The position numbers and the translations under genes are program-made. From Patescibacteria group bacterium (GTDB lineage: Bacteria > Patescibacteriota > Minisyncoccia > Phycocordibacterales > UBA9973): a stretch of 64,000 nt of DNA. Of the stretch, positions 3,891-61,986 are shown in pieces. The notes below the pieces were generated by a model that made no database searches, was not told where the DNA came from, and saw only the letters and a list, made by a program, of their open reading frames with translations. How positions within the stretch are numbered: position 1 is the first letter of the stretch; every line of letters starts with the position of its first letter. The stretch spans positions 7,534 through 71,533 of the forward strand of contig JBBUEH010000002.1 in assembly GCA_038078255.1 (NCBI GenBank), written 5' to 3'.

Positions 3891-5107
3891 TAATCAAAAT
3901 AATTTTTTAACCGTGCTATTTTTTCATGCTGGCGGAGTTTTTCGTGGACCTTCGCTTCGATTTGACGAATTCGTTCACGGGTTACATGAAATTCTTCGCC
4001 TACTCGCTCTAGGGTGTGCTGGATGCCATCTTTTAATCCATAGCGCATTTCTAAAATTCTACGCTCTTTCTCATTTAGTTCATCTAAGACTTCTTTAATT
4101 TGATCAGAAAGAATTCGACGAGAAGATTCTTGATCAGGACGCAAAATTTTATCATCTGGAATAAAGTTCTCCAGTGTTGATTTGTCGTCATCATCCCCCA
4201 CTGGTTGTTCAAGCGATACTGTCTCTTGCGAGATATTTTCAATCACATGAATTTTCTCCACTGGAAGACCCATTTCAGTCGCAATTTCTTCCGCCAACGG
4301 TTCACGACCTAAGTCTTGAGAGAGTCTACGGTGGGTTTGTTTATATTTAGAAATTGTTTCCACCATATGCACCGGTATACGAATAGTTCTCGACTGATCA
4401 GCCAATGCTCGAGTGATCGATTGGCGAATCCACCAAGTCGCATAAGTAGAAAATTTATACCCCTTCGTCCAATCAAATTTCTCTACCGCTTTGAACAAAC
4501 CCAAGTTCCCTTCCTGAATAAGGTCCAGGAGGGTCAGGTTGGCAGACCTGCCGGTATACTTTTTAGCAATAGAAACCACCAGACGCAAATTTGCTCGAGC
4601 TAATAAATTTTTTGCTTCTAAGTCGCCGTGTTCAATCCGTTTTGCCAGTTCCTTTTCTTCGCTTGCATGAATAAGCGGATACTGGCCTATTTCTTTGAGA
4701 TACATTTGAATAGAATCAGACATGATCGACTTGTTGATATCTTTATCAGACTGATCGTTGTCGAGGTTGAGCAGATTCCCCCCCTCCAACACATCGATTC
4801 CAGCAATACCGAATTTTTCATAAAGTTCATCTAAAAATAAAATATTATTTTCAATATCGGGAAAAGTTTTCAATATTTCATCGTAGGTGACGAACCCTCT
4901 TTTGCGCCCTTTTTCTATGAGTTCCTGCGATAAACGATCCAGATTTTCAGCTTTTCTTTCAGCTGAAGACAGTTTTCCGTCTTTTCGGCGGATCGCCGAT
5001 GAGACGATTTTTTTAAAAATCTTCTTCTTTGCTTTTTTGAAAATCTTTTTTTTCTTCTTTATAACTTTGATTTTTTTATTCAATTTTTTATTTTTCTTTT
5101 TTTTCAT
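3890..5107 (-). CDS. rpoD: RNA polymerase sigma-70 factor RpoD with Lys-rich N-terminal extension
   Basis: Regions 1.2 to 4 are conserved ([62 protein letters not shown]). The start codon is ambiguous within a poly-A/Lys tract. Confidence 0.9.
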
Positions 5108-7564: not shown

Positions 7565-10500
7565 TATTCTTACTTTTAAACCCTGTCCCAGCCGGAATTA
7601 GTCTTCCAATTATCACATTTTCTTTTAGACCTCGGAGAGAATCCACGCCACCCTTGATGGCATTTTCGATCAGCACCCGGTTAGTGTTTTGGAACGAGGC
7701 GGCAGAGAGCCAGCTTTTAGTGCGTAGTGATACTTCCGTAATGCCCAGCACCACTGTTTCGGCTTTTGCTTCTTTTCCACCTGACTGTTCAATTCTGACA
7801 TTCTCTTCTATGAGTGAAGTATTTTCAACGATATCACCGATAGAAAAATTCGTATCGCCTGCATCTTTTATTTTTCGACGAGAAAACATCTGGCGAATAA
7901 TTATTTCTGTGTGCTTTCGAGAAATCGAAGCGCTTTGTAATTCATAAACTTTATTTATTTCACGAATGATATATTCCTCAACAAATTCTTTGCCACCCCA
8001 TTTAAAAATTTCAGCAATATCAGCAGAACCATCAGTCAGAAGCTCTCCCGCTCCAACACGATCCCCTACCTTAACAATAGGCACTCTACGAAAGGCTACT
8101 GTATATTCCATCTCGTTTGGTTTACCATCAACTTTTGTATCTGATAATATTTTGATTACCTTTTCTTTCCCACCTACTCCGCCAGAAGCTGAATCTTTGG
8201 CTGTGATAGAAATAACCTCTCCGTTGGTTTCGGAAATAATTGCCGGATTTTTAGGAATTCTTCTTTCAAATATTTCTTCCACCCGAGGTAGCCCAGTGGT
8301 GATGTCTGTGCCAGCCACTCCTCCAGCATGAAAGGTGCGAAGGGTGAGCTGAGTTCCCGGCTCGCCTATCGCTTGAGCGGCAATGATCCCCACAGCTTCG
8401 CCCTGCTCCACTAGGCGATTCCGCCCCAGATCCAATCCGTAACACTGAACGCAAAGTCCATGAACAGTGTGACAAGTCAGTGGAGAACGAACAAAAACTT
8501 CTGTGAAACCCGCTTCTTCAATGTTGTATGCTTCTTCTTTGGTCACTAAAAATCCTCTCTTATAAACAGTTTTACCATTTTTGTCTTTCAGGTCTCCTGC
8601 TAAGATGCGCCCTCGAATATTTTTGGAAAGCGGAATTTCAATTCCAGAAATATTTTCTTTCGAAACAATCTTCCCTTCTTTAGTACCACAATCTTCTTCA
8701 GTAACAACCACATCCTGCGCCACATCAACCAATCTTCGGGTTAAATATCCAGCCTTGGCAGTATTGAGCGCAGTGTCAGAAGCGCCCTTTCTAGCGCCAT
8801 GAGTAATAACGAAATATTCAATCGGAGAAAGCCCTTCTTGATAACAAGGAATAATCGGAAACTCCAGTGTCCTCCCTTGGTTGTTTTGAATAAGTCCAAT
8901 CATTCCCGTCATTTGCATCAGAGAGCTCATCGTCCCTCGAGCCTTCGAAGTAAATAAATCATAAGTGGAACCGTTTTTTTCAAGCGTATTAGGTAGAACT
9001 TTCTCTAAATTTTTCTTGGTATGTGTCCAAATTTCAATAATTTTTTGATATTTTTCTTCTTCGGAAAGCAGACCTTCGTTCCACTGTGATATTATATCTT
9101 CTTCCAGTTTTTTGCCCTGCGCTATAATTTTGGGTTTCTCGGGGGGCACCGAAACATTATCCAACCCCCAGGTTGTACCAGAAACAGTTGAATATTTAAA
9201 ACCAAAGGCCTTAATCTTGTCTAAAATAGCAGGGGTATCGTCTATGCCATATTGCATAATGAGCTCATCTAGGAGCATGGACAATCTACCTTGGGTCATT
9301 TCATCATTCACATAGAAAAAATTAGAGGGTAGAATACTGTTGAAAAGTAATTTTCCGACAGAGGTGTCAAAAATTTTTCCATTAAATTTTTTGTATTTAT
9401 CTGAATCTGTGGCTAGCACTTTTATCTTCGCTCGAAGAGATACCACTCCGTATTCGTAAGCCAGAATTGCTGTATTGGGATTCGAAAAGTATTTGCCTTC
9501 ACCCTGTTCTCCATCAATATCTTTCGTCATCCAATAAGAACCAAGCACGATGTCCATACTGGGATGCACTATCGGATCGCCATTTTGGGGCTTGAGCAGA
9601 TTCTTATTTGATGCCATCAAATCCTTGGCTTCTCGTTGCGCTTCTTCAAGGAGAGGCACATAGACTGCCATTTGGTCTCCATCAAAGTCAGCATTGAAAG
9701 CCTGACATACTAGGGGGTGAACCTGAATAGCATTTCCTTCAATCAAAATAGGATTAAAAGCCTGGATACCCAGACGATGCAGAGTCGGCGCGCGGTTCAA
9801 AAGAACGAATTTACCTTTAATCACTTCTTCTAAAATGGCCCAGATTTCTCCTCCTCTCTCTTCTATCAATTTATTGGCACCCCGAATATTGAAGGCCAGT
9901 TCGGCGTGTAAAATTTTCGAAATTATAAATGGTTTGAAAAGTTCTAGCGCCATGTGTTTAGGCAATCCGCATTGATTTAATTTAAGTTCGGGGCCAACCA
10001 CAATAACTGAACGACCAGAATAGTCCACTCGTTTCCCGAGCAAATTCTGACGGAAGAGTCCCTGTTTCGATTTCAAGTTATCGGAAAGAGATTTCAACGG
10101 TCGTTTTTGAGACTGACTCATAGCGGCATTATCATTTTGTTTGGCAATAGAGTTGTCAATCAATGCATCCACTGCTTCTTGAATAATTCTTTTTTCATTT
10201 CGCAGAATAACATCCGGAGCGTTAATTTCTTTCAACTTCTTTAAACGATTATTTCTGTTGATCACTCGACGATAAAGATCGTTTAAGTCAGAGGTTGCAT
10301 GTCTCCCCCCGTCTAGCGCCACCATCGGACGAAGGACGGGCGGAATAACTGGAATAGTGGTTAAGAACATCCACTCGGGACGAATTCCCGCATAATTCAT
10401 CGCCCGAAGAAGCGAAAGCCTTTTTTGCAATTTTTCTTTTTCAGCCATACTGGCCTTCTCTAGCATTTTTTCGGTGTGAACTTTTAATTTGTTTAAATCA

Positions 10501-12367: not shown

Positions 12368-15300
12368 TTAATTTTTCCCTGATTTTCTAAGATCGACATC
12401 CAGCGCCAAGCCCCGCAGATAATTTAGAAGCACATTGAACGAGGCGGGAGAATTCGGCGGTCGAATCGTTTCATTTTTAATAATGGAATCAAAGGTTGCT
12501 GATCGGCCTTGAATGTCATCTGATTTAATCGTCAGCATTTCACGCAAAGTATAAGCCGCCCCATAACCTTCGAGCGCCCAGACTTCCATTTCTCCAAATC
12601 TCTGTCCTCCGCCTTGAGCTTTTCCGCCCAAGGGTTGCTGGGTAATGAGAGAGTAAGGACCAATCGAACGCATATGAATTTTATCCTCTACCATGTGATG
12701 CAGTTTAAGCATGTACATATATCCTACTGCGACATCTTGCTCGAAAGCCTCCCCCGTCCGTCCATCAAAGAGTTTCACTTTTCCAGATTCTGGCAGTCCC
12801 GCTTTTACTAATTCTTCTTTTATTTCTTCGTGCTTCGCTCCCAGAAAGGGCGGAACGATAGCCTGATAACCCAAACTATTCGCCGCCATCCCAAGGTGCA
12901 TTTCTAAAATTTGCCCCAAGTTCATCCGAGAAGGAACACCAAGGGGTGAGAGAATAATATCAACCGGTGTGCCGTCAGCAGTGTAAGGCATGTCTTCTTC
13001 TGGTAAAATCGTGGAGATCACCCCCTTGTTCCCATGTCGTCCAGAGAGCTTGTCTCCGACTGAAATATTTCTAATCTGCGCCACTTCAATCACGATTTTT
13101 TTTATAATTCCCGCTTCCAGCGAATGTCCCAGATCACGAGAAAAGATCTTTACCCCAATAATTCTTCCTCGTTTGCCATGTTCCATTCGAAGCGAAGTAT
13201 CTTTCACATCCCGAGCTTTCTCCGCAAAGATTGAACGAAGCAATCGTTCTTCGGGAGTCAGTTCCGTTTCACCTTTAGGAGTAATCTTGCCCACCAAAAT
13301 ATCATTTTCCCGAACCTCTGCTCCAATACGAACGACGCCATCTTCATCCAGATCTTTCAATTTTAATTCTCCGACATTCGGTATATCTCGAGTAGTAATT
13401 TCAGGTCCCAACTTTGTATCCCGAACGACGGAAGTAAATTCTTCAACATAAACAGAAGTGAATTTGCTCTTTTTAACCAGTCGTTCCGAAACAATGATCG
13501 CATCTTCGTAAGTTGATCCAGACCAAGACAAAAAAGCCACAAAAATATTCTGACCCAAGGAAATTTGTCCACCGACTGTACTGCTAGTGTCTGCTAAGAC
13601 GGCCCCTTTCTTTATTTTGTCGCCGACATCCACAGAAGGTCGTTGATGAAACACAGAAAAGTTGTTATTCCGTATAAAATTTACTAAAGAATAAGTCTTT
13701 TCCGTTTTTCCTTTCACCACAATTTTTTTCGCATCTAAATACGAGACCACACCATCTTCTTCTGCTAAAATCAATCGCCCAGAATCTCGGGAAGCTAACT
13801 CTTCCATCCCTGTCGCCACCAAGGGCGCTTCGGGGAGAACACAAGGCACCGCTTGCTTCTGCATGTTTGATCCCATTAGAGCGCGATTGGCATTGTTGTG
13901 TTCTAAAAACGGAATCATCGAGGTCGCAATAGAGAAAGCTTGGTTGGTCGCCACATCAATAAAGTCCACTTCTTCCCGAGCGACAGTACCCGGTTCTGTT
14001 TTAATTCGAGCTTCTACTTTTTCCTCGGTTATTTTGCCATTTTCATCATAGGGAACCCCCGCATGCGCAATATTATATTTTTCTTCCTCCAGCGCATTCA
14101 GATACACCACCTCTCCAGTCAATTTCCCATTCTTCACCTTGATATAAGGAGTTTCAATAATTCCAAATTCATTTATTTTGGCATAAGTAGATAAGTGCAG
14201 AATCAGTCCAATGTTCGGACCTTCAGGAGTATGAATCGGACACACTCTTCCATAGTGCGAAGGATGCACATCCCGAACTTCGAGCCCTGCTCGTTCCCGA
14301 GTCAATCCGCCGGGGCCGAGCGCCGAGAGCTGTCTAATGTGCTCTGTTTCCACCAACACATTTTCTTGATTCATAAATTGAGAAAGCTGGTTGGTAGTGA
14401 AAAATTCTTTGATACGAGCTTGGAGTGGTCGCTGGTTGATAATAGCGATAGGCATCGCTGTATCCACATCAATAATAGACATTCTGTCTTGAACATTTCT
14501 CTTGATCTGCATCATACCCGTACGGACTTTCTGTTGCAGTATTTCACCCACAAATCGCACCCGCCTCTGACCCAAATGGTCAATGTCGTCGCTCTTTGCT
14601 CCTGGAGTATTGTTCAAAGAAATAATGTGCATGATGACAGTGGCTAGATCTTCTTTAGAAATAGTACGACGAAGAAGAGCTTGTTCATCCATGGGCTTAT
14701 TAAATCGCTGATTAAATCTAAATCTACCAACCGGAGAAAGGTCATATCGCTCAGCGGTAAACAAAGAATCAATAAATTCTTTAGCATTATCAGCTGTGGC
14801 CATATCTCCATCTCTGAGACGCTTATATATTTCTATATAGGCATCGTTTATATTTTTTAGTCCATCTTTCGCCAAACAAATCTTTATTGTTTCTTCAAAA
14901 TTCGAACTTAATTCTGTTTTACCACTGAATGCCTTTAAAATAGCTTCATCCGTCTCATAACCCATCGCCCGCAGGAGCGCAGTTGCGGGGAATTTTCTTT
15001 TTTTATCTATTCTGATATAAATTGCCCCATCAGATTCGGACTCTATCTCAATCCAAACTCCCCGAGCTGGAATAATTTTTGCTCCAAAATATCTGTTCCC
15101 CTTACTTTCGGATTCAGTAAAGAAAACTCCGAAGCTTCTCGCTAGTTGTGGAACGATGACCCGCTCTACGCCATTGATGATAAAAGTCCCATGCGAAGTC
15201 ATTAAAGGAAAATCCGACATGAAAATTTCTTGCTCCTTCACTGTGCCTAAGATTTTATTAGTCAATTTTACCCGCGCTTTCAACTGCCCCTGATAGGAGA

Positions 15301-16325: not shown

Positions 16326-16507
16326 TGGTTTATTTTAGCATGATTCCCAGAAAGTAAAACTTTCGGAACTTTATAATTTTTGCCACGGTATTTTAGAACT
16401 TCCGGTCGAGTGTAAACTTCGCTAGTAGATATGCGTTCTTCTTCTAGAGATTCATATCTGCCCAGGACTCCCGGAATCTGGCGTGAAATTGAGTCTATCA
16501 GAACCAT
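16307..16507 (-). pseudogene. orphan 3'-terminal fragment of trmD (diverged duplicate of the 3' end of the intact trmD at 19250-19951)
   Basis: Protein [55 protein letters not shown] matches the TrmD C-terminus. It is about 88% nucleotide identical over about 195 nt to 19283-19476. Confidence 0.75.
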
Positions 16508-16709
16508 CGCTGGAAGTTCGCCACCGGTACAAGGTGGGTCTGGAAACCTTAAACGCTTCTTTGGTTGCTAGATCCCCATACTTCTCCCAGAAAGCTAGAA
16601 CCCGGCACCTTTCTTTTGCTTGTTCGGTAATCATATACCGAAATCGTAGCACTCTTTGCCAGATGGTGATGAAGCCCTTGGTTCCTTTAAATTTGTTAAA
16701 TTGTCGCAT
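16452..16709 (-). pseudogene. transposase N-terminal helix-turn-helix remnant (IS3/IS481-like) running out of frame into the trmD fragment
   Basis: [26 protein letters not shown] is a typical transposase HTH. There is no catalytic domain and the frame collides with the trmD fragment. Confidence 0.45.
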
Positions 16710-19249: not shown

Positions 19250-19951
19250 TCATCCTCGCTTCTTCCACGCATCGATAAGTTTATGATTCCCAGAGAGTAA
19301 AACTTTCGGTACTTTATAATTCTTACCCCCATATTTTAGAACTTCCGGTCGAGTGTAAACTTCGCTACTTGAGACTCTTTCTTCTTCTAGAGATTCATAT
19401 TTACCCAAGACTCCGGGAATTTGACGCGAGATGCAATCGATCAGAACCATCGCTGGAAGCTCGCCACCAGTCAGCACATAATCCCCAATTGAAATTTCTT
19501 CCAGCCCTCCAGGGGCGAGTAAACCTTTGAGAATTTTCCCTACTCTTGCATCTATGCCTTCATATCTGCCAGAAATTAAAATAATATCCGTGTATTTCTG
19601 CTTCACCAACTTTTTCGCATAAGTTGTGTCGAACTTTTTACCAGAGGGAGAAAATAAAATAATCTTTATTGTCCCTTTCTTAGCTTTCTTGTCCGCCATA
19701 GCTTTAGCGACGGCAGAAAGCAGTGGCTCGGCTTTCATCACCATTCCGGGTCCGCCACCGTAGGGCTTGTCATCTACTGGACGATACCCATTATCTTTCA
19801 GCGCCCCGCCACGGCGGGCAGGCTTTATAAAATCACGAGGATTATAGAAATTAAAATTTATTAATTTATTCTTCACCGCCCGCCCGATAATAGACTCTTT
19901 GAGATAAGAATCGAACATCTCCGGAAAAATTGTAATAATATGAAATTTCAT
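19250..19951 (-). CDS. trmD: tRNA (guanine37-N1)-methyltransferase TrmD
   Basis: SPOUT fold; conserved GRYEGIDARV.. and C-terminal [15 protein letters not shown]...[10 protein letters not shown]. Confidence 0.9.
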   Translation of the reverse strand: MKFHIITIFPEMFDSYLKESIIGRAVKNKLINFNFYNPRDFIKPARRGGALKDNGYRPVDDKPYGGGPGMVMKAEPLLSAVAKAMADKKAKKGTIKIILFSPSGKKFDTTYAKKLVKQKYTDIILISGRYEGIDARVGKILKGLLAPGGLEEISIGDYVLTGGELPAMVLIDCISRQIPGVLGKYESLEEERVSSSEVYTRPEVLKYGGKNYKVPKVLLSGNHKLIDAWKKRG

Positions 19952-20055: not shown

Positions 20056-20658
20056 CTAAACTTGCTTTTTTATCTGCATTTTCCAGTTATTTATCTCAAT
20101 AAGATTGACCTTACCCCTATTTTCATCTATCAACTTTTTAAGTTTTGTAGAAAATCTTTTTGTATTTATTCCTGGTTTCCTAACACCAGCATTAGAAGAC
20201 ACCACATAGACTTTTGTCCCTTTTTCTACTACTTTTCTTATTAGATATTCAAAATCACCATCACCTGTAAAAATAAGAAATTCTTTGTCGATTCCTGCTT
20301 CTTCCATACAATCCACAGTTAAGTCTACATCGCAATTAGATTTTCTATTGTAACCCATATCAACAACTTCGATATTATCTTTTCCACATTCAACACATTT
20401 TATGGAAATAGTTTTATCTGATTTTTTATAAGCAAAAACTGTTTTTGCCCTTACGATGCAACCATTCTTTGATAGAGTGTCAAATTCTTTAGCGGTTTCT
20501 GTATCCCCTTCATCAATACCTGAATAAAAGAAAATTTTCTCACAGTCCCATTTTTCTTTTAGATATTTACAGAGTTTATGCCAATCAACAATAAAACCCA
20601 ATAACTTTTGTGTAGTAGTGGCTGTGTTCTGAACATCTATAAAAGCGTATCTTTTCAT
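20056..20658 (-). CDS. NYN-domain (LabA-like PIN) putative RNase
   Basis: MKRYAFIDVQN..., DVDLTVD and FLIFTGDGDFEYLI motifs. The ORF is trimmed to the internal Met at 20658; the upstream track extension is implausible. Confidence 0.65.
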   Translation of the reverse strand: MKRYAFIDVQNTATTTQKLLGFIVDWHKLCKYLKEKWDCEKIFFYSGIDEGDTETAKEFDTLSKNGCIVRAKTVFAYKKSDKTISIKCVECGKDNIEVVDMGYNRKSNCDVDLTVDCMEEAGIDKEFLIFTGDGDFEYLIRKVVEKGTKVYVVSSNAGVRKPGINTKRFSTKLKKLIDENRGKVNLIEINNWKMQIKKQV

Positions 20659-20695
20659 ATAAAAATGATAGCACAAATTCAGGCACAAGCAAAAA

Positions 20696-20721
20696 ATCTC
20701 TGAGAACAAGTTCTCAGAGAT
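20696..20721 (-). terminator. Rho-independent terminator (minus strand): TCTCTGAGAAC-TTG-TTCTCAGAGA followed by TTTTTT
   Basis: 11-bp perfect stem with a U-run on the minus strand, downstream of the rpsP-KH operon and upstream of the NYN gene. Confidence 0.6.
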
Positions 20722-20775
20722 AAATTTGATAAAAAAACAAAAGAACATTTTGTTGCGGCCCCGTTAGGTCAGGTT

Positions 20776-21000
20776 TTTATTTACGGGGCCGCCTTTTTTT
20801 CTTACTTCATTCTTTCTTCTCCTTTCTTCCGAACAGGGTTCGGAAGAACCTTCTCACCCTCCACCCCACCGGGGGTGGAGGGGGGTTCAGAAACAGGGGG
20901 TTGGAGAGATGCTCAAAAGATCCTCCCCAACCCTCGTTCCTCAGGGAAAACCGACTTGATCGGGTTTCCCTGCACCATCCTGTAACCATGGTGTGGTTCC
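20776..21000. repeat. structured GC-rich intergenic block: GCGGCCCCGT..ACGGGGCCGC hairpin plus a cluster of palindromes sharing the AGGGGGTTGG / CCTCCCC cores of repeat family 1; possible structured RNA
   Basis: GC content is far above the local background. It contains CTTCCGAACAGGGTTCGGAAG, CCTCCACCCCACCGGGGGTGGAGG and CAGGGAAAACCGA..TCGGGTTTCCCTG hairpins. The overlapping ORF 20807-21037 is judged spurious. Confidence 0.45.
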
Positions 21001-21100: not shown

Positions 21101-21484
21101 CTATATCCCCTTTAAGTCTTCCATCGCTTCGTCTACTGTCTTCAGCGAACTTGGAGCTTTGCCCATACCGCTACCAGTGTTACCCATCATAGGGGCAGAA
21201 TCATGCCCACCTATGCTGTGCTCTTGCCTCATGCCTCCTTCTGGTTCGTTAATTTTCAAATTAACCCGAGCATTATTTTTCATGCCGATAATGCGGAGCA
21301 GTGTGCGGATAGCTTTCGCCGTATTGCCCATCCTGCCGATAATCTTGCCCATATCCGCAGGATTCACCGTCAAGCTAATAAGTACTCCCATTTCGTCCAC
21401 CGTGCGATCAATCTTGATATCATTCGGATTGTCTACTAATGCCTTCACGACATATTCCAGAAACACCTTGTCTGCTTCTTCCAT
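21101..21484 (-). CDS. KH-domain RNA-binding protein (YlqC/UPF0109 family)
   Basis: KIIGRMGNTAKAIRTLL GxxG KH motif; canonical position downstream of rpsP. Confidence 0.75.
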   Translation of the reverse strand: MEEADKVFLEYVVKALVDNPNDIKIDRTVDEMGVLISLTVNPADMGKIIGRMGNTAKAIRTLLRIIGMKNNARVNLKINEPEGGMRQEHSIGGHDSAPMMGNTGSGMGKAPSSLKTVDEAMEDLKGI

Positions 21485-22721: not shown

Positions 22722-24728
22722 GTGAAACACCAGACGAACAAACTTCAGGGCATCATTTCAATTTCCTCCAAAGGTATTGGATATGTCGCCATTGGTGAAA
22801 ATAAAAATAAAGGGCAAGATCCAGAAATTGATTTCCGGCATTTGAACACTGCGCTCCATGGAGACACGGTGGAAATACTGCTCCATCCTAAGGGACACGG
22901 CAGGCAGACTGCTGAAGTTTCAAAAATAATTTCCCGAGCGAAAATGAACTTCGCCGGGGTGTTGGAAGTGGAGAATAAAATGCATTTTTTGAAACCTGAC
23001 GATAGTAAAATGTACACTGATATTTTAATTCCTGAAAGAAATTTACATGAGGCGAAGGTTGGGCAGAAAGTTTTCGTCGAAATAGTTTCCTGGCATGACT
23101 CCCGCAAAGCGCCAGAGGGAAAGGTGGTGAAAATTCTGGGTCAGCCTGGAGACAATACCGTAGAAATGCATGCGATAGCTTTAGAGAAGGGTTTCGCCGC
23201 AGAACTTCCAAAGAAAGTGGAAGACGAAGCAAGAAAAATCAAAATACTAGGAATGCAAAAAGCTGATTTTGTGGGACGGAGAGACTTTCGAAAAATTCTA
23301 ACCTTTACCATTGACCCCTCTGATGCAAAAGATTTTGATGATGCAATATCATTTAGAGAGCTCCCCTCCTTGAGTAAGGAGGGGGTTGGGGGTGGTAATT
23401 CCAAGCACCACCTCGCCTCCGGCACTCCTCCTTCAAAAGGAGGAGAGGGATTATTTGAAATAGGCATTCACATTGCCGATGTTTCGCATTTCGTGAAGGT
23501 CGGTAGCGCTCTCGATCTTGAAGCGCAAGAACGAGGAACCTCTGTGTATTTAGTCGACAGAACTATCCCCATGCTTCCAGAAACTTTATCAAATGATTTA
23601 TGTAGTCTCGTCCCTCACAAAGATCGACTCACCATGAGCGCCGTTTTTGTCTTGGATAAAAATGCTCAGGTGAAAAGCGAATGGTACGGACGAACTGTGA
23701 TTCATTCGCAAAAAAGATTTACTTATGAAGAAGCAGAAGTATCCATCCATAGGTCTGACGCTCCCCTGCATAAAGAATTAGCTATTTTAAATACTTTGGC
23801 AAAAAAATTAACTAAAGAAAGGTTTACGCAAGGTGCTATATCACTTGACCAAGAAGAAGTAAAATTCGTTTTAGATAAAAAGGGAGTGCCTCTCAAAGTA
23901 TTAAAAAAAGAACGAGGTGATTCCAACAGACTGATTGAAGAATTTATGCTCCTAGCAAATAAAAAAGTAGCGACGGTGTTGTCTCCCTATCCCTCTCTCT
24001 ATCGAGTGCACGATCTGCCGAGTAAAGAAAAAATGGCCGACTTGGCATTTTTCTTGCGTAGTTTAGGACATAAAGTGTCTCTCCGGGACGGAATAATTCC
24101 GACTCATGAGATAAATAAATTATTAGAAAATTTAGAAGACAAAAATGCAAAAGAAAACCTGAGTGATACTGTGCATCGAGCCGTCATTAGATCGATGGCG
24201 AAAGCCGTTTATTCGACCAAAAACATTGGACACTATGGATTGGCATTTTTATACTACACTCACTTTACCTCGCCAATTAGACGATATCCGGACATCATCA
24301 TCCATCGATTGCTTCAAGATTTTCTTTCTGGAAAAAAAAGAAAAAAAGAAAATATGCGAGAAAAAGTTTTAGAATATGAAAAAATAGCCAGGATATCATC
24401 CGAACAAGAAAAAAGGGCCTCCGATGCCGAAAGAGCCTCTATTAAATATAAACAAGTAGAATATATGTCTCTCCGTATGGGAGAAAAATTCGAGGGTATT
24501 ATTAGTGGTATTACCGAGTGGGGTCTATTCATTGAAGAAAAGGAAACAAAATGTGAAGGTATGGTACGAGTCCGAGATATGCAGGATGACTTTTATATTT
24601 TCAACGAAAAAAAATTAGAATTAGTAGGACAAAAAAAGAAAAAGAAATATCGCTTGGGTGATCGAGTGAAAATAAAAGTGAAAGGAGTTGATTTAGAACG
24701 AAAAACCATAGATTATATTTTAAGATGA
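22722..24728 (+). CDS. rnr: ribonuclease R (RNB family 3'-5' exoribonuclease)
   Basis: Cold-shock/OB N-terminus; RNB motifs DFDDAIS and GIHIADVSHFV; C-terminal S1 domain. Confidence 0.9.
   Translation: MKHQTNKLQGIISISSKGIGYVAIGENKNKGQDPEIDFRHLNTALHGDTVEILLHPKGHGRQTAEVSKIISRAKMNFAGVLEVENKMHFLKPDDSKMYTDILIPERNLHEAKVGQKVFVEIVSWHDSRKAPEGKVVKILGQPGDNTVEMHAIALEKGFAAELPKKVEDEARKIKILGMQKADFVGRRDFRKILTFTIDPSDAKDFDDAISFRELPSLSKEGVGGGNSKHHLASGTPPSKGGEGLFEIGIHIADVSHFVKVGSALDLEAQERGTSVYLVDRTIPMLPETLSNDLCSLVPHKDRLTMSAVFVLDKNAQVKSEWYGRTVIHSQKRFTYEEAEVSIHRSDAPLHKELAILNTLAKKLTKERFTQGAISLDQEEVKFVLDKKGVPLKVLKKERGDSNRLIEEFMLLANKKVATVLSPYPSLYRVHDLPSKEKMADLAFFLRSLGHKVSLRDGIIPTHEINKLLENLEDKNAKENLSDTVHRAVIRSMAKAVYSTKNIGHYGLAFLYYTHFTSPIRRYPDIIIHRLLQDFLSGKKRKKENMREKVLEYEKIARISSEQEKRASDAERASIKYKQVEYMSLRMGEKFEGIISGITEWGLFIEEKETKCEGMVRVRDMQDDFYIFNEKKLELVGQKKKKKYRLGDRVKIKVKGVDLERKTIDYILR
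23361..23450 (+). repeat. family-1 GC-rich palindromic element inserted in frame in rnr (encodes LPSLSKEGVGGGNSKHHLASGTPPSKGGEG)
   Basis: Three hairpins: CTCCCCTCCTT-GAGTA-AGGAGGGGG, GGTGGT-AATTCCAAGC-ACCACC and CTCCTCCTT-CAAA-AGGAGGAG. The 90 nt make 30 codons sitting between DFDDAIS and HIADVSH. Confidence 0.7.
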
Positions 24729-35286: not shown

Positions 35287-35303
<17 letters not shown>

Positions 35304-36753
35304 CTAAATTTTTTTCTATTATTTTATTTCCTTCATTGTACGCCACATGCATTTCTTCCCCATTTTTCTTAAACACTGTTCCTATTTCAAAAATTTTTAT
35401 TTCACTTAGGCCTAGAAATGAGGCATTTATTTTATTTAATTTTACACTCTCCAGCAATCCATCACTCAAATTCGTTCTCAAGAATTTTTTATCAGAAGCA
35501 CTTTGCATAACTTCTACTTCGCCCTTATCTCTAAAAGTATAAGTCATCACTTCATTGTATCCATCAGCTAATAATTTCTTCCTCACCCATTCTATTTTGG
35601 CGTAAGTTTCATTTACTTTAGGTTTAAAGTTTATTTTAGGTATATTCCCTTTTATTTTATCGTAACCCAAAATTCTTCCTATCTCTTCCGCCATATCTTC
35701 TTCTATCTCTAAATCAAGGCGCATCATCGGCACAGTTATTTTGAATACTCCTTTGTTTTCTGTATATACAAAATTATATCTTTTCAAAATATCTTCAATC
35801 TCATCACTCGACACATTCAAACCTAAAATTTTAGAAATTCTCTCTGCTGAAAAAGAAAGCTTTCGCTCTGCCTGTTTCTCTGGATAAGTATCTACAATGT
35901 CTTCAAACACTGCCTCTGGACACATCTCTAGAACTAAAGCCGAGAGTTCATGCATGGCATATGACGCAAGCTCGGGTGATAAATCATTTTCGAAACGCTT
36001 TCTGGCATCGGTAAAAATATTAAGCGCTTGACCTGTTTTTCTAGCAAACACTGGATCAAAATTATCAGCTTCCAAAATAAGGTCGGTCGTGGAAGTCGTA
36101 ATTTCTGCGTATTTGCCTCCCTTGATGCCCGTATCAAGCGGATTTCCTTCTCCGTCAGAAATAATTACCATTGTATTATTTAATTCCTTTTCTTCTCCGG
36201 TAAGTAAAGTTATTTTTTGTCCATTTTGAGCAGCGTTAATATTTAATCGAGCACCCTTTACTTTATTCAAATCAAAAGCATGAGTGGGTTGCCCACAATC
36301 AAACATCACTAAATTCGTTGCATCTACTATATTATTTATTGATCTCTGCCCAATTGATTCTAAATGTTTTACTACCCACTCTGGTGAAGGACCAATTTTT
36401 ACATTACGCACAATGCGCCCGACATGTCTGCGATCTTTTGCTGTATTTATTTCTATTTTTAATTCAGTTGGCTTGGATTCTGGAATTTTATATTTTGCCG
36501 TTGGATCAACAAAGTTAATATTCAAAAGTGAGGCAAGTTCACGAGCAATGCCTAGATGAGAAAGTAGATCATGCGCCCGATTTGGCAAAATATTTATATC
36601 AAAAATAAAATCACCACCCCCAGCCCCCTCCTCCCCAAGGAGGGGAGTTAGACTCTCAACCTCAGCAATATGATAAGTAATAATATCTGCTAGCTTCTCT
36701 GCTTCTGGAGCATCCGGTATATACCATTTAAGCCAATTGTAAGAAATTTTCAT
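35287..36753 (-). CDS. pheT: phenylalanyl-tRNA synthetase beta subunit (reduced form), C-terminal domain split off
   Basis: N-terminal MKISYNWLKWYIPDAP... and B3/4 and B5 core. Carries an in-frame family-1 element (LLGEEGAGGGD). Confidence 0.8.
36613..36650 (-). repeat. family-1 GC-rich palindromic element in frame in pheT
   Basis: CTCCTCCCCAAGGAGGGGAG hairpin. Shares AAGGAGGGGGNTGGGGGTGGT with the rnr and recG copies. Confidence 0.6.
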
Positions 36754-41138: not shown

Positions 41139-43250
<2,112 letters not shown>

Positions 43251-43305: not shown

Positions 43306-44319
43306 TTAATCTATTTCAATAGCGTTAATTTGAGCGTTATCCACAACTGTGATAAATTGAATTATAATTTGACCGCTTCCGTTTGCAGTAGCAGAAAAAC
43401 TTTTATCCACCGCCTTAAAATTAGACCCGACATCTTGAATTATATCAAAATTTGTAAGCACAGATGTGCCATTTATATTTACATTAAAAACTCTTTGTCC
43501 TGGGCTACTCCAAAAAATTTCTGCAAACTTTAGTATCACAGTATAAGATGCGCTAGGTGTTAGACCTGTTACAGTATAAGTCATATTTCCATATCTTAAG
43601 TCCTGATAAAGTGTCTGATCGCTAGTTCCGATAATGGAATTAGTCGTTGAATATAGACTTCCACCTGAAAAACTATTATCTGCGCTCCAACTTCTAGAAA
43701 GTGAATCTGTATAAGCTCCACCTCCAGAATTTATCAAAGCAACCGGTACGACTGAAGCCGCCCCAACCCCATAGCTAGCTTTAATCTCTCGTTCAATACG
43801 ATTCGGGTTAGATGAATTGCAAGAGGGATCGCCAATATTGTATCCTTTGGAAGTGAGGGTGGTGACGATAAAAGGAGGATCGATGGCGGCATCTTTAAAA
43901 ACACTTACCTTGGCGCAACTTGTCCCATTATTACTCAAACCAGTAACAAGAAAAGTGTAAAGTCCTGTATTAGTTCCGGCAGAATAAGTAGGTATGCCAG
44001 CTGCGCAAGTCAAGGCTGTGGCCGGCCCAGCTACGGAGAATTTACTAACGGGCTTATCATTCATGAGCGCGCATTCGATGCCAGTATCAGCCGCAAAAAA
44101 GGCTTCATTGGTGTCTTTCGCCGAAGTGCTAAATTTCATTTCTTTAAGCGTAATATTAGAAACACCCAAAGCTATTGCCAAAATAAGGCTGGAGAGCGTC
44201 ACGGCAAAAAGGATGACGAATCCTTTTTTATTTTTAATTTTTAATATTATTTTTATCATTTGATTTAACGAAATCATGCCGCGCAATCGTCCATTAAAGC
44301 GCAGCGCTATTCTATCCAA
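43306..44319 (-). CDS. large minor-pilin-like protein (PilX/GspK-like) with prepilin-type N-terminus
   Basis: KKGFVILFAVTLSSLILAI N-terminal hydrophobic segment; secreted beta-rich remainder. Confidence 0.45.
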   Translation of the reverse strand: MDRIALRFNGRLRGMISLNQMIKIILKIKNKKGFVILFAVTLSSLILAIALGVSNITLKEMKFSTSAKDTNEAFFAADTGIECALMNDKPVSKFSVAGPATALTCAAGIPTYSAGTNTGLYTFLVTGLSNNGTSCAKVSVFKDAAIDPPFIVTTLTSKGYNIGDPSCNSSNPNRIEREIKASYGVGAASVVPVALINSGGGAYTDSLSRSWSADNSFSGGSLYSTTNSIIGTSDQTLYQDLRYGNMTYTVTGLTPSASYTVILKFAEIFWSSPGQRVFNVNINGTSVLTNFDIIQDVGSNFKAVDKSFSATANGSGQIIIQFITVVDNAQINAIEID

Positions 44320-44927
44320 TTAAATAAATTCTCAGAAAAAACAACACTATAATTACCAGAACCCTGCGACCAAGAAACAGTGGAAATAATTTTTGTTTCG
44401 TCGGCGCTTACCACCACTGTTCTAATTTTTCTAGTTAGACCAGAAGCTGTCCCAGAAAAACCATATTTGCCTGTCGCAGAATTGTACAAAAGAGCTCCAT
44501 TGGAACAAGTAGAAGATGCGCAAGCAGTCAACGCAATATCAATCATTGGTTGGGTACTATCACTATAATTTAAACTATCAGCGTTAATATAACAACCGTT
44601 CACCCCGTTGCAGGCAGAAATATCAACCAGGGTGGCATTAAAATTATTCCAGCCTGTCTGCGCTCCGCCAGAATAAAGCATATAAGTATCCCGCATATTT
44701 CTCATATATTCAACACCCTCTTGCGCCAAATATGAAGCAATGACTTTCCTTTTGGCATAGCCTGTATTGGAAATCCCTTGAGCTAAAATCCCAAGCAATG
44801 CCAAAATCGATGCGGTAAAAATTGAAACAGCCACCAGCATTTCTACTAAAGTAAAGCCCCGCCTGCAAAAGCTATGCTTTAAGCATGGCGGGCAGGCCTT
44901 CTTCTTTTGTTTGCGAAAAAGTTTCAT
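44307..44927 (-). CDS. type IV (pseudo)pilin-like protein with 24-aa leader containing an in-frame family-2 palindromic insertion
   Basis: CRRG/FTLVEMLVAVSIF prepilin cleavage motif and hydrophobic helix. The leader MKLFRKQKKK[ACPPCLKHSFCRR]G. Confidence 0.6.
   Translation of the reverse strand: MKLFRKQKKKACPPCLKHSFCRRGFTLVEMLVAVSIFTASILALLGILAQGISNTGYAKRKVIASYLAQEGVEYMRNMRDTYMLYSGGAQTGWNNFNATLVDISACNGVNGCYINADSLNYSDSTQPMIDIALTACASSTCSNGALLYNSATGKYGFSGTASGLTRKIRTVVVSADETKIISTVSWSQGSGNYSVVFSENLFNWIE
44859..44897 (-). repeat. family-2 GC-rich palindromic element (39 nt = 13 codons) inside the prepilin leader
   Basis: GCCTGCCCGCCATGCTTAAAGCATAGCTTTTGCAGGCGG, homologous to 48197-48268 and 60076-60114. 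Confidence 0.65.
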
Positions 44928-48196: not shown

Positions 48197-48268
48197 CCTG
48201 CCCGCAATGCTTTCAGCATACCCGCCAGCAACGCTTCGCATAGCGATGCGGGCTGGGCCTGATGCAGG
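48197..48268. repeat. family-2 GC-rich palindromic element, intergenic copy (with internal expansion)
   Basis: CCTGCCCGCAATGCTTTCAGCATACCCGCC...CGCATAGCGATGCGGGCTGGGCCTGATGCAGGCGGG. Same termini (CCTGCCCGC[A/C]ATGC...GCAGGCGGG) as the 44859 and 60076 copies. Confidence 0.6.
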
Positions 48269-48285
48269 CGGGATCTAGCTAATTT

Positions 48286-58927: not shown

Positions 58928-59069
58928 CCCAGTATTATGTAAAGAGACAGCCTAAGCTGTCTCTTTAAAAACGAACGAGCATTTTTAGTGACCTCCTGTC
59001 ATAAAGAATTTGACTTGAGATTAATAATGGCGACCTTTGATATTATAGCACAAAAATAATGGAAGCAAG

Positions 59070-59158
59070 CGGAGCCGGGCGGATTCGAACCGCCGAGGGG
59101 TTTTGAAGCCCCTGCCTCTTTAGCAAAGAGGTACGTTAGACCACTCTGACACGGCTCC
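59070..59158 (-). tRNA. tRNA-Ser (anticodon GCU), class II
   Basis: Acceptor GGAGCCG/CGGCTCC; anticodon arm CCTCT-TTGCTAA-AGAGG; long variable arm; T-arm GGCGG-TTCGAAT-CCGCC; discriminator G; no encoded CCA. Confidence 0.8.
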
Positions 59159-59233
59159 ATTTCACCTAAATACTCTAACACATTATTATTGATTTTCCAT
59201 TTCATTTTTTTCTGCTATACTTTCTTTGCTTTT

Positions 59234-59320
59234 GGATGAGTGGGTGAGTGGCTTAAACCAGCGGTTTACTAAACCGCCGTCCCTTTAAAAGGACCGTGAG
59301 TTCGAATCTCACCTCATCCG
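59234..59320 (+). tRNA. class II (long-variable-arm, G73) tRNA with atypical anticodon loop UUACUAA (apparent anticodon ACU)
   Basis: Acceptor GGATGAG/CTCATCC; 3-bp D-stem; anticodon stem GCGGT/ACCGC; variable arm GTCC-CTTTAAAA-GGAC; T-arm GTGAG-TTCGAAT-CTCAC. Confidence 0.55.
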
Positions 59321-59381
59321 CCTTCGGTTTGCAATAGCGAACCTTTAATGTAATGAAATCAATTATAGAAAATAAAAAAAT

Positions 59382-59723
59382 ATGAAAGATTTATCTCCAA
59401 TTATTTTAAGAATAGGAATCGGATTAGTAATAATCTGGTTTGGTTTACAACAAATTAATACTCCCCTTGCTTGGGTTGTATATCTACCAACTTTTACAGA
59501 GAACCTGCCAATCAGTCAGACAACTTTTGTTTCCTTGAATGGATATTTCGAATTAATCTTCGGGATTTTGCTCGTAGCGGGATTTTTTACTAGAATTGTT
59601 GCTTTTTTCTTGGCATTACATCTCTTAGGAATAGTTTTGACTGTGGGGTATAACGAAATAGGTGTTCGGGATTTCGGTATTTTTATTGCCCTAGTCTCAA
59701 TTTTCTTATATGAAATGGAGTGA
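59382..59723 (+). CDS. DoxX-family small membrane protein
   Basis: RIGIGLVIIWFGLQQ and three or four transmembrane helices. Confidence 0.45.
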   Translation: MKDLSPIILRIGIGLVIIWFGLQQINTPLAWVVYLPTFTENLPISQTTFVSLNGYFELIFGILLVAGFFTRIVAFFLALHLLGIVLTVGYNEIGVRDFGIFIALVSIFLYEME

Positions 59724-61986
59724 CAAATTAGAATTAAAATTCCGCTTAGATGAAAAACAAAAAAAAGCTTTGCGTAAGCTGAAACTTTTCTCGGTGGCTG
59801 ATCTCTTATACCACTTCCCTGTCAGATATAGCGACATAAGTACAGTGAAAAAAATTAGCGAACTAATTCCCGGTGAAATTGCCACGATCTATGGAAAAGT
59901 TTCAAATTTAAAAACTAAAAAAGGTTTCCACTCCAAGATTCCCATGGCAGAAGGCACGATTGAAGATATCTCTGGAAAAATAAAAATTATTTGGTTCAAC
60001 CAAGCGTATCTGGCAAAAATGCTTCATGAAGACGATAGCGTTAAACTCACGGGCAAGGTGACTCAAAGTAAAAGTCCTGCCCGCAATGCCTCCAGCATAG
60101 CTGGCGCAGGCGGGGGTATATACCTAGCCAATCCAGAATTTGAAAAAGTGCCAGATATGCCAATAGATGCGCATGATACTCTTTTTAGACCCCCTCGCCC
60201 TTTGGGCACTCCCCCTTCGCAGGGGGAGAGGATTCCTCCCCGCCTTAAGAAGGAGGGGGCAGGGGGTGGTCTCTCTTACCCCATCTATGCTGAGACCCGT
60301 GGAATAACTTCCAAGTGGTTTTATCATGCGATTGAAAAATTCTTGAGAGAAAAAACTCTCGATGGTGTTGCAGACTATCTTCCGAGTGATATTTTAAAAA
60401 AATATAATTTACCAGCCTTGAAAACTTCGTTCATCTGGATTCATAAACCGAAAAATAAAAACGATGCTGAATCTGCGAGGAAAAGATTTGCCTTTGAGGA
60501 AGTTTTTTGCATCCAACTCGAACGACAACATGACAAATTTGAATATAGGAAAAATAAATCTTTCCAAATTGTTTCGGAAAAAGAAAATGTTGAGAAGTTT
60601 TTAAAACGCTTTCCTTTTGAACCCACAAATTCTCAAAAAAAATCCATTGAAACAGTACTGGAAGATATGTCAAAAGATTTTCCAATGTCCCGTCTGCTTG
60701 AAGGAGATGTAGGGTCTGGGAAAACTGCCGTAGCGGCAACGGCAAGCTATATAACAGTGGCGCAAAGACCCTTCGACCACACTCAGGGCAAGCCACAAAA
60801 TTTCGGTAATCTGCAGGTTGCCTACATGGCACCGACAGAAATACTAGCCACCCAACACTTCGAATCATTCATTGAATATTTCCAACATCTGCCAATCAAT
60901 ATCGGACTGATTACTGGATCCGGTTGTCGTAAATTTCCTTCCAAAGTAAATCCGAGTGGCTGGACCACCATCTCTCGAGCACAACTATTGAAGTGGGTAG
61001 CCAATGGAGAAATACCAATTCTAATCGGCACCCATGCCCTCATTCAAAAAACAGTTAAATTTAAAAACTTGGCGCTCGTGGTAATAGATGAACAGCATAG
61101 ATTTGGCACGGAACAAAGAAGGAGATTAGTTAAAAAAGATGGACTGGCACCACACCTCCTCTCCATGACTGCCACTCCCATCCCTCGCACCCTGGCGTTC
61201 ACTATTTATGGCGATCTCGATCTCTCCCTCCTCGATGAAATGCCTCTGGGACGAAAACAAATAATTACAGAAATTATTCCGCCCAATAAAAGAGAAGAAA
61301 CTTACGAACAAATCAAGCAGGAATTAAAAAACGGCAGACAACTTTATGTAATTTGTCCGAGGATATTTGCACCTGACCCTGAAAAAGAATTAGCGCTGAA
61401 TGTAAAGTCTGCCACAGAAGAAGCTAAGCGATTAAAAAAAGAAGTTTTTCAAAAATATGAAATAGGCGTCTTGCACAGCCAGATGAGTAAAATTAAAAAA
61501 GAAGAAATAATGAAGGAATTTGCGAATGGCAAATTGAATATTCTCTGCGCCACCTCGGTAGTAGAAGTGGGTGTCAATGTGCCGAATGCTACAGTGATTG
61601 TTATTGAGGGCGCTGAACGGTTTGGTCTAGCCCAACTTCATCAACTTCGTGGACGAGTCATCCGAAGTAACCATCAAGCGTATTGCTACATTTTTGCCGA
61701 TGCTAAAAGTGACAAGACAATTGCCAGATTAAAAGCTCTCAAAACTGCCAAGAATGGCTTTGAATTAGCTGAACTTGACTTGACCCTCCGGGGCGCAGGC
61801 GAACTCGGCGGGACCAAACAGTGGGGCATCACCGACCTCGGCATGGAAGCGATTAAAAATATAAAAATGGTAGAAGCCGCCCGCACTGAAGCTATAAGAA
61901 TAATAGCCGAAGACCCTGAACTAAATAAATACCCTCTGCTTAAACAAAAAGTTCATGAAAAAGCTGGAGAATTCCATTTTGAGTAA
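59710..61986 (+). CDS. recG: ATP-dependent DNA helicase RecG with two in-frame palindromic-element insertions in the N-terminal domain
   Basis: RecG N-terminus (LGI.TV.DLLYHFPVRY), helicase motifs I to VI and C-terminal TRG motif. Insertions at 60076-60114 and 60189-60270. Confidence 0.9.
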   Translation: MKWSDKLELKFRLDEKQKKALRKLKLFSVADLLYHFPVRYSDISTVKKISELIPGEIATIYGKVSNLKTKKGFHSKIPMAEGTIEDISGKIKIIWFNQAYLAKMLHEDDSVKLTGKVTQSKSPARNASSIAGAGGGIYLANPEFEKVPDMPIDAHDTLFRPPRPLGTPPSQGERIPPRLKKEGAGGGLSYPIYAETRGITSKWFYHAIEKFLREKTLDGVADYLPSDILKKYNLPALKTSFIWIHKPKNKNDAESARKRFAFEEVFCIQLERQHDKFEYRKNKSFQIVSEKENVEKFLKRFPFEPTNSQKKSIETVLEDMSKDFPMSRLLEGDVGSGKTAVAATASYITVAQRPFDHTQGKPQNFGNLQVAYMAPTEILATQHFESFIEYFQHLPINIGLITGSGCRKFPSKVNPSGWTTISRAQLLKWVANGEIPILIGTHALIQKTVKFKNLALVVIDEQHRFGTEQRRRLVKKDGLAPHLLSMTATPIPRTLAFTIYGDLDLSLLDEMPLGRKQIITEIIPPNKREETYEQIKQELKNGRQLYVICPRIFAPDPEKELALNVKSATEEAKRLKKEVFQKYEIGVLHSQMSKIKKEEIMKEFANGKLNILCATSVVEVGVNVPNATVIVIEGAERFGLAQLHQLRGRVIRSNHQAYCYIFADAKSDKTIARLKALKTAKNGFELAELDLTLRGAGELGGTKQWGITDLGMEAIKNIKMVEAARTEAIRIIAEDPELNKYPLLKQKVHEKAGEFHFE
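60076..60114 (+). repeat. family-2 element in frame in recG (encodes SPARNASSIAGAGGG)
   Basis: CCTGCCCGCAATGCCTCCAGCATAGCTGGCGCAGGCGGG, near-identical termini to 48197-48268. Confidence 0.65.
60189..60270 (+). repeat. family-1 element in frame in recG (encodes PPRPLGTPPSQGERIPPRLKKEGAGGG)
   Basis: GGCACTCCCCCTTCGCAGGGGGAGAGG (B module) followed by AAGGAGGGGGCAGGGGGTGGT (A module 3' half). Hairpins CCCCCT-TCGC-AGGGGG. Confidence 0.65.

Follow-up and report, generated by a model that had tools for sequence, protein, structure and literature searches.

Rickettsia palindromic elements (RPE) are about 100-150 bp long, are confined to Rickettsia and lie in frame in many unrelated genes, as summarised from Ogata et al. 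(2000, 2002) in PMC10969869, and they end in CGTC (PMC3733652). Repetitive extragenic palindromic sequences (REP) have also been found within genes, many of them replication and repair genes; in two Xanthomonas species, one and the same recB position is occupied by different REPs (Di Nocera et al. 2013, PMC3733652). A comparable arrangement is described here in the recG gene of a member of the Patescibacteria, carried on a 64-kb stretch of contig JBBUEH010000002.1 that is referred to below as the window. The N-terminal region of this gene holds two GC-rich hairpin elements in frame: element 1, a single hairpin of family 2, at site 1, and element 2, which is built from two hairpin units of family 1 (units A and B), at site 2. 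Both very probably belong to REP/RPE-like, non-autonomous, GC-rich hairpin repeats that are dispersed in AT-rich Patescibacteria genomes and survive only in tolerant loops of the host proteins. While the kind of element is known, the searchable literature yielded no prior description of such elements in Patescibacteria (also called the Candidate Phyla Radiation, CPR).

Like the RPE, the elements are dispersed palindromic repeats of several families occurring together in the AT-rich, reduced genome of a host-dependent bacterium, and they lie in frame in many unrelated housekeeping genes, where the encoded peptides are apparently tolerated by the protein structure. The units are only 36-39 nt long, however, family 2 carries the tag CCTG in place of a CGTC end, the hosts are Patescibacteria, and family 2 is near-identical across very different hosts of this group; the likeness to RPE rests on behaviour, and a sequence relationship is not expected. 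With REPs the elements share the form of imperfect palindromes of 20-40 nt that occur in many dispersed copies and bear a short unpaired tag at one terminus, and with REPINs (REP doublets) the head-to-head dimers with larger folds, represented here by units A and B. In contrast to REPs, with their GTAG or CGTC tags, family 2 is tagged by CCTG and the family-1 units have no consistent GTAG or CGTC end. Most copies of family 2 are intragenic, whereas REPs are mostly extragenic, and unlike in the REPtron, where REPs accompany a REP-associated tyrosine transposase (RAYT), no RAYT flanked by family 1 or 2 was found in the contigs screened. REP families are also usually species- or genus-specific, unlike family 2.

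The GC clusters of yeast mitochondria (PMC4478555) are likewise GC-rich mobile hairpin repeats in a very AT-rich genome, coding regions included. They belong to organelle genomes, however, and their sequences are unrelated to those of the present elements. Ribosomes skip the 'byp' elements, which are related to GC clusters; the lengths observed here, by contrast, are multiples of three and consistent with translation. The palindrome-associated transposable elements (PATE) derived from IS200/IS605 (PMC10969869) are similar in being non-autonomous and hairpin-forming, a likeness that extends to the recG insertions without target duplication, but no conserved tetra- or pentanucleotide lies 5' of the insertions reported here. 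Bacterial miniature inverted-repeat transposable elements (MITE; PMC10969869) are likewise non-autonomous and hairpin-forming, but long terminal inverted repeats are missing here, and the present units measure only 39 nt. Target duplication, by which MITEs are recognised, is absent from the four family-2 insertions in recG; direct repeats are enriched at the flanks of metagenome copies, and an ATTTAT pair flanks a hairpin of another family in recG of two related species (L021 and L062).

The RecG product of the window contains the Pfam domains RecG_wedge (PF17191, residues 13-120), DEAD (PF00270, residues 307-494), Helicase_C (PF00271) and RecG_dom3_C (PF19833), all above their cut-offs, so that the wedge (OB) domain, the SF2 helicase core and the C-terminal domain expected of RecG are all present. 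It aligns with RecG of Thermotoga maritima (1gm5) at E = 8e-126. Phe204 and Tyr208 of 1gm5, which we take to be the fork-splitting residues of the wedge, correspond in our reading of the alignment to F96 and Y100 of the window protein, and both residues are intact. Judged from the undisturbed open reading frame (ORF) and these aligned wedge residues, RecG function is probably retained. The protein shows 100% identity to an NCBI entry labelled Patescibacteria group bacterium, and its relatives carry the names Nomurabacteria or Paceibacterota. The window is AT-rich, with about 34-43% GC per 2 kb and about 38% GC overall, and both recG elements are among its few islands of at least 70% GC.

Two in-frame palindromic elements 75 nt apart had been reported in this part of recG by the first-pass annotation, and both sequences and their spacing were confirmed. 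Element 1 forms an imperfect hairpin of -12.3 kcal/mol. Against shuffles, elements 1 and 2 reach modest z-scores of about -2.3 to -2.5, since a sequence this rich in GC still folds well when shuffled. The occupancy of both sites was assessed in the 120 closest RecG proteins found by BLASTP, which include the window protein and share 76-82% identity. Element 1 occurs in the window protein alone and is missing in 119 of the 119 closest orthologs, while site 1 has its base length, with the short segment K(S/N)-G-IYLANPEF, in 111 of the 120 proteins. Compared with the empty sites, element 1 adds 39 nt exactly and shows no target duplication, and shuffled sequence gave no chance match to the 39-mer. 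A different hairpin insertion of 39 nt occupies the same codon in L021, L062 and four database orthologs (P0005, P0014, P0024 and P0063). This third hairpin family at site 1 comprises 33 nt (CCCCACACCTTT...AAAGGTGTGGGG) with ATTTAT on either flank, which gives 39 nt in total.

Element 2, at codons 161-187, was found to be a composite. The annotation had listed a single family-1 copy; the assignment to the family holds, while the insert consists of two units placed head to head, unit A being followed by two linker codons and unit B. Pairing between the G-rich tail of unit B and the C-rich head of unit A gives the composite a Y-shaped fold of -24.6 kcal/mol. Some part of element 2 is present in 23 of the 120 RecG proteins, scattered over the RecG tree; a short form with unit A alone (PPRxxGTPPSQGE) accounts for 19 of them, and units A and B occur together in only 4, the window protein included. 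A recognisable insert at site 2 is missing in 78 of the 120. The modal site-2 segment measures 24 residues (56 of 120 proteins) versus 43 in the window, so that the window protein exceeds the modal ortholog by a net 32 residues (13 at site 1 and 19 at site 2). The earlier figure of about 40 added residues is thus correct for what the elements encode but too high as a net gain. Third-codon identity of unit A across eight species reaches 0.90, against 0.55 in the adjoining recG codons.

The ortholog alignment identifies both segments as non-native: the closest orthologs all lack element 1 and mostly lack element 2, and paralogs of the elements lie in other genes, which is the reverse of conserved RecG sequence without palindromic relatives. 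An ortholog free of inserts (P0043) aligns with 1gm5 in a single stretch (residues 16-699 versus 126-769) with alignment gaps at both sites, and the alignment of the window protein with 1gm5 splits in two at residues 108/181. Site 1 aligns with the turn that follows the 1gm5 strand EVFVTGTV, and site 2 with the variable stretch before ILPIY of 1gm5. AlphaFold2 modelling of the window protein with 104 close orthologs gave a poor model (predicted local distance difference test score, pLDDT, 54.9; predicted template modelling score, pTM, 0.40), which was used for secondary structure only; in it, strands 110-119 and 137-147 flank insert 1, and insert 2 falls in coil. By these comparisons both segments are inserts that are not ancestral to RecG, and both sites are indel-prone loops of the wedge region whose length was already variable. 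The placement in surface loops, which the annotation had proposed to check by structure prediction, is supported by the alignments and, as far as a model of this quality allows, by the flanking strands and the coil.

Several hairpin families were found at both sites, as expected from the idea of a hotspot or an insertion-tolerant domain. A profile search (nhmmer) covered 1.4 Mb, made up of the window and the recG loci of 80 related species, and recovered 12 copies of family 2. Family 2 lies within 10 kb of recG in only 8 of the 80 related species. Of the 12 copies, 7 fall inside recG or beside it, and recG accounts for 13% of the searched sequence (P = 3e-4). Within the gene, four species carry family 2 at four positions, namely site 1 (window), three codons upstream of it (L038), site 2 (L012) and around codon 524 (L022), and in three further species a copy lies just past the recG stop codon. 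At site 2, at least six hairpin families occur among the orthologs, with the L012 copy of family 2 among them. Both recG loops have been struck repeatedly and independently. Insertions also fall into existing hairpins: in L030 a family-2-like hairpin sits within the loop of unit A, nesting is likewise seen in L116, L135 and L167, and flank stems of at least 6 bp were observed 6 times versus 1.1 in controls.

Family 2 is not restricted to recG. A degenerate pattern scan of metagenomes found it on at least 120 contigs, which stem from numerous separate studies. All sequences analysed, the window and the recG loci included, together contain at least 134 copies in 45 distinct variants, of which the commonest (CCTGCCCGCAATGCTTTCAGCATAGCTGATGCAGGCGGG) occurs 50 times. 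Positions that the scan pattern left free are also near-invariant, except 15-18 and 28-29. The structure ....(((((..(((..(((((...))))).))).))))) is backed by compensatory changes, with 13 double changes at each of the inner-stem pairs 17-29 and 18-28, and the 5' CCTG is unpaired and invariant. None of 500 shuffles attained the observed covariation score, and shifting the pairing partners by 1-3 columns lowered the paired fraction from 94% to 30-48%. Since the variable bases alter the encoded residues (F/S/Y; D/V/N/G/...) and the stem covaries, the constraint lies on the hairpin and not on the peptide. The metagenome hosts of family 2 include TopA, GyrA, an UvrD/AddA-like helicase, Fpg, PpsA, MurE, PBP2, PurA, G6PD, aminopeptidase N and others. 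No family-2 match was obtained on viral contigs, so nothing points to a phage as vector. We infer the taxonomic breadth of family 2 from the Nomurabacteria loci and from contig L095, whose Y1_Tnp gene has named Microgenomates relatives.

Most family-2 copies among the matches listed are read through by long ORFs. In 33 of the 39 that are clearly intragenic, flanked on either side by 40 or more open codons, the element is read in sense phase 0 (PARNAxSIAxAGG), where one frame in five would be expected (P = 8e-18), and many beyond the 39 are in frame near ORF ends. One of the other sense frames of the consensus contains TAG and the other encodes four cysteines, and one antisense frame of the commonest variant contains TGA; part of the frame bias is therefore simple filtering. 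The same matches are oriented 34 in sense versus 5 in antisense (P = 2e-6). Replication strand was considered as a cause of this bias and dropped, as two full copies in the window have opposite absolute orientation, each in sense with its own gene (n = 2). A separate observation concerns TopA, where two species (L150 and L165) carry different family-2 variants at the same position together with family-1-like peptides, an apparent hotspot.

The process behind these patterns may be pictured as follows. Insertions would land widely, and the survivors would be those that keep the frame, bring no stop codon and add a harmless flexible peptide in a surface loop. A survival filter of this kind would account for unit lengths that are multiples of three (39 nt) and for the dominance of one frame. 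Existing hairpins would attract further insertions and give rise to nests such as the composite of units A and B. Translation of the inserts is assumed from the preserved frames. Mobilisation would take place in trans, by an enzyme acting on single-stranded hairpins; that this enzyme is of the HUH/Y1 type (RAYT or IS200-like) is a guess and is put forward tentatively. All four family-2 insertions in recG add exactly 39 nt without duplication, which fits single-strand hairpin chemistry of the HUH/Y1 type. A regular-expression screen of 2.17 Mb revealed only two Y1-type ORFs, both on contigs that also carry family 2. Homologs of the L095 Y1_Tnp gene are abundant in Microgenomates, with conserved synteny and each bracketed by a genome-specific hairpin. 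Such hairpin-bracketed Y1_Tnp genes constitute a REPtron-like arrangement; in L201, L202 and L206 its neighbours are trmD and a cluster of type IV pilus genes, while in L204 the neighbourhood is another one. The stem core of the third hairpin family at site 1 is similar to the hairpins that bracket the L095 gene (CCACACCT...AGGTGTGG).

Several observations weigh against this account of mobile, non-autonomous repeats filtered by protein tolerance. In metagenome copies, short direct repeats at the flanks show an enrichment of about 2-3 times, with repeats of at least 5 nt occurring 14 times versus 5.1 in the same-locus control. Upstream of 124 unique family-2 copies no conserved target motif was detected, only A-richness. 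The window contains no Y1_Tnp gene, and the Y1_Tnp genes found elsewhere are flanked by other, genome-specific hairpins and not by family 1 or 2, so that no transposase is linked to either family. A polymorphism of empty and filled sites within one population was not observed, and, the AlphaFold model being poor, the surface-loop placement draws on alignments and secondary structure. REPs are not usually as alike in distantly related hosts as the copies of family 2 are, and such near-identity calls for either horizontal spread or strong constraint. Finally, peptide tolerance and filtering may not fully account for the 34:5 bias towards sense. In a more novel version, family 2 would be a coding-adapted mobile element across Patescibacteria classes whose almost invariant 13-codon hairpin evolved to encode a harmless peptide; its strand and frame biases would then result from transcription- or translation-coupled movement or from a host function, not from selection alone, and the mobiliser would stand outside the known transposase families. 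This version is conceivable but doubtful.

The strong conservation of family 2 in many hosts, its covarying stems and its sense-strand bias relative to the host gene would also suit hairpins kept by the host as RNA or DNA signals for messenger RNA stability, translation pausing or recognition and uptake, with a regulatory role in recG. Many of the hosts are DNA-metabolism genes (RecG, TopA, GyrA, UvrD-like, Fpg), and the copies 3' of recG in three species directly follow the stop codon. Presence is sporadic, however, with family 2 near recG in 8 of 80 species and with RecG orthologs of 93-95% identity differing in unit A, and the positions in unrelated genes look arbitrary. An Rfam scan of 59000-61000 returned no credible match over the elements, and few family-2 copies precede T-runs, which further makes a host-kept signal unlikely. 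Known uptake signals, as in Neisseria and Pasteurellaceae, are far denser than these copies, so that a DNA-uptake signal was set aside as improbable, and the covariation of the stem indicates that shape matters and not sequence alone.

A single old insertion per site, passed between relatives when recG segments underwent homologous recombination or gene conversion and often precisely lost, without any insertion de novo, was also considered. The 5' junction, orientation and frame of unit A are constant in all 23 carriers, and palindromes are prone to deletion. Its presence on the RecG tree requires 22 Fitch changes for the 23 carriers, the same as random labels, although the tree is poorly resolved and this scatter is indicative only. 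Recombination may contribute to the pattern of unit A, but it is not the whole story: the family-2 copies of four species lie at as many different places in recG, the six or more hairpin families at site 2 are unrelated to one another, and the same families recur in unrelated genes and in nested copies, all of which leaves recombination and loss as a quite improbable sole cause. That the segments are native low-complexity linkers of this lineage or artefacts of metagenome assembly, for which the variable nature of the site-2 linker in all orthologs and the origin of the window from a metagenome-assembled genome could be cited, is hardly credible given closest orthologs without the segments, near-identical DNA copies both in other genes and in contigs that numerous separate studies produced, frames preserved everywhere and variants that covary, unlike adapters or chimeras.

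Understood as dispersed repeats tolerated in loops, the hairpins would be selfish or semi-selfish DNA that persists by hiding in permissive parts of proteins and from which core proteins can readily gain variation in length. Genomes of Patescibacteria are tiny and streamlined, yet the hairpins lie in essential genes such as recG, topA, gyrA, ligA, rnr, trmD, pheT, murE and others. The inserts inflate apparent divergence and break alignments, as seen with 1gm5, and they could mislead annotation and structure prediction in a large uncultured group. The conserved 39-mer could serve as a probe for its mobilising enzyme and for tracking horizontal exchange, and the RecG wedge loops are positions where engineered insertions should be tolerated.

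A repeat search of the window recovered paralogs of both recG elements (Table 1). Extrapolated from these 64 kb, hairpin inserts may be expected genome-wide. The trmD element folds no better than shuffles, and its place in the family is given by sequence resemblance only; the corresponding TrmD insert is a 10-residue gap relative to 4mcb. In RNase R, the insert of about 24 residues (215-238) has no counterpart in 8cdu, and the unit order is B-A, the reverse of that in recG.

Table 1. Coordinates of recG, its hairpin elements, further hairpins in the window and Y1_Tnp genes on other contigs (positions refer to the window unless a contig is named).
Feature	Position	Strand	Description
recG	59710-61986	+	Intact 758-residue ORF hosting both hairpin elements
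Element 1, family 2	60076-60114	+	39 nt, codons 123-135, PARNASSIAGAGG; imperfect hairpin, unpaired 5' CCTG
Unit A of element 2, family 1	60190-60228	+	39 nt, codons 161-173, PPRPLGTPPSQGE; C-rich arm, then hairpin CTCCCCCT-TCGC-AGGGGGAG
Unit B of element 2, family 1	60235-60270	+	Codons 176-187, PPRLKKEGAGGG; hairpin CCTCCCCGCCTT-AAG-AAGGAGGGG, then G-rich tail GGGCAGGGGGTGGT
Short family-2-like element	19796-19826	-	CCTGCCCGCCGTGGCGGGGCG; in frame in trmD, encodes most of the 10-residue insert KPARRGGALK
GC-rich hairpin, intergenic, broadly of this type	20846-20900		CCCTCCACCCCACCGGGGGTGGAGGGGGG; between ORFs 20056-20748 and 21101-21484
Unit B followed by unit-A-like element	23361-23448 (unit B 23361-23401)	+	In frame in RNase R gene (22722-24728); fold z = -5.3
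Unit B paralog	36609-36649	-	In frame near N-terminus of pheT (35287-36753)
Related hairpin with G-rich tail	42722-42757	-	CCCCTCTCCTT..AAGGAGAGGGG; in frame in ligA, about 7 residues, gap versus Escherichia coli LigA (2owo); z = -4.5
GC-rich hairpin	42907-42938	-	In frame in ligA, 8 residues (PPPPKGRE), gap versus 2owo
Family-2 paralog	44858-44896	-	5' leader region of pilin-like gene (44307-44927); folding free energy -13.1, z -3.6
Intergenic family-2 copy	48197-48272	+	Nested: another, divergent family-2-like hairpin interrupts it just after the apical loop
Y1_Tnp (IS200-like) gene, Microgenomates-like genome	L201 10001-10669		Bracketed on both sides by genome-specific hairpin
Y1_Tnp (IS200-like) gene, Microgenomates-like genome	L206 10001-10669		Bracketed on both sides by genome-specific hairpin
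Y1_Tnp (IS200-like) gene, Microgenomates-like genome	L204 10001-10675		Bracketed on both sides by genome-specific hairpin
Y1_Tnp (IS200-like) gene, Microgenomates-like genome	L095 9294-9968		Bracketed on both sides by genome-specific hairpin

Further observations concern recG in another genome and the surroundings of the elements in the window. The recG gene of the Microgenomates-like L206 has its own GC-rich palindrome in the wedge region (4502-4544, GCTCGCTTCGC...GCGAAGCGAG), and the tolerant region therefore reaches beyond Nomurabacteria. Just 5' of recG in the window lie two divergent tRNA-Ser genes at 59069-59158 (-) and 59234-59322 (+), one of them called with the unusual anticodon ACT; these two tRNAs are the only features of the Rfam scan that reach gathering scores.

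GC-rich islands also occur in rpoC/rpoB at 8337-8429, 10301-10345, 13804-13852, 14284-14339 and 14959-14992; some are hairpin-like, for example CCCGCAGGAGCGCAGTTGCGGGG, and they may be read either as elements or as native conserved codons. Compared with its E. coli counterpart, LigA additionally carries an insert of 19 residues with an internal repeat in the zinc-finger region (about 41886-41942, -), which is not of the GC-hairpin type. The segments 16326-16540 (-) and 19250-19486 (-) share 189 nt at 86% identity, the 3' end of trmD being duplicated there. Of the two, the upstream copy encodes a C-terminal TrmD fragment with no start codon and is probably a gene fragment or pseudogene.

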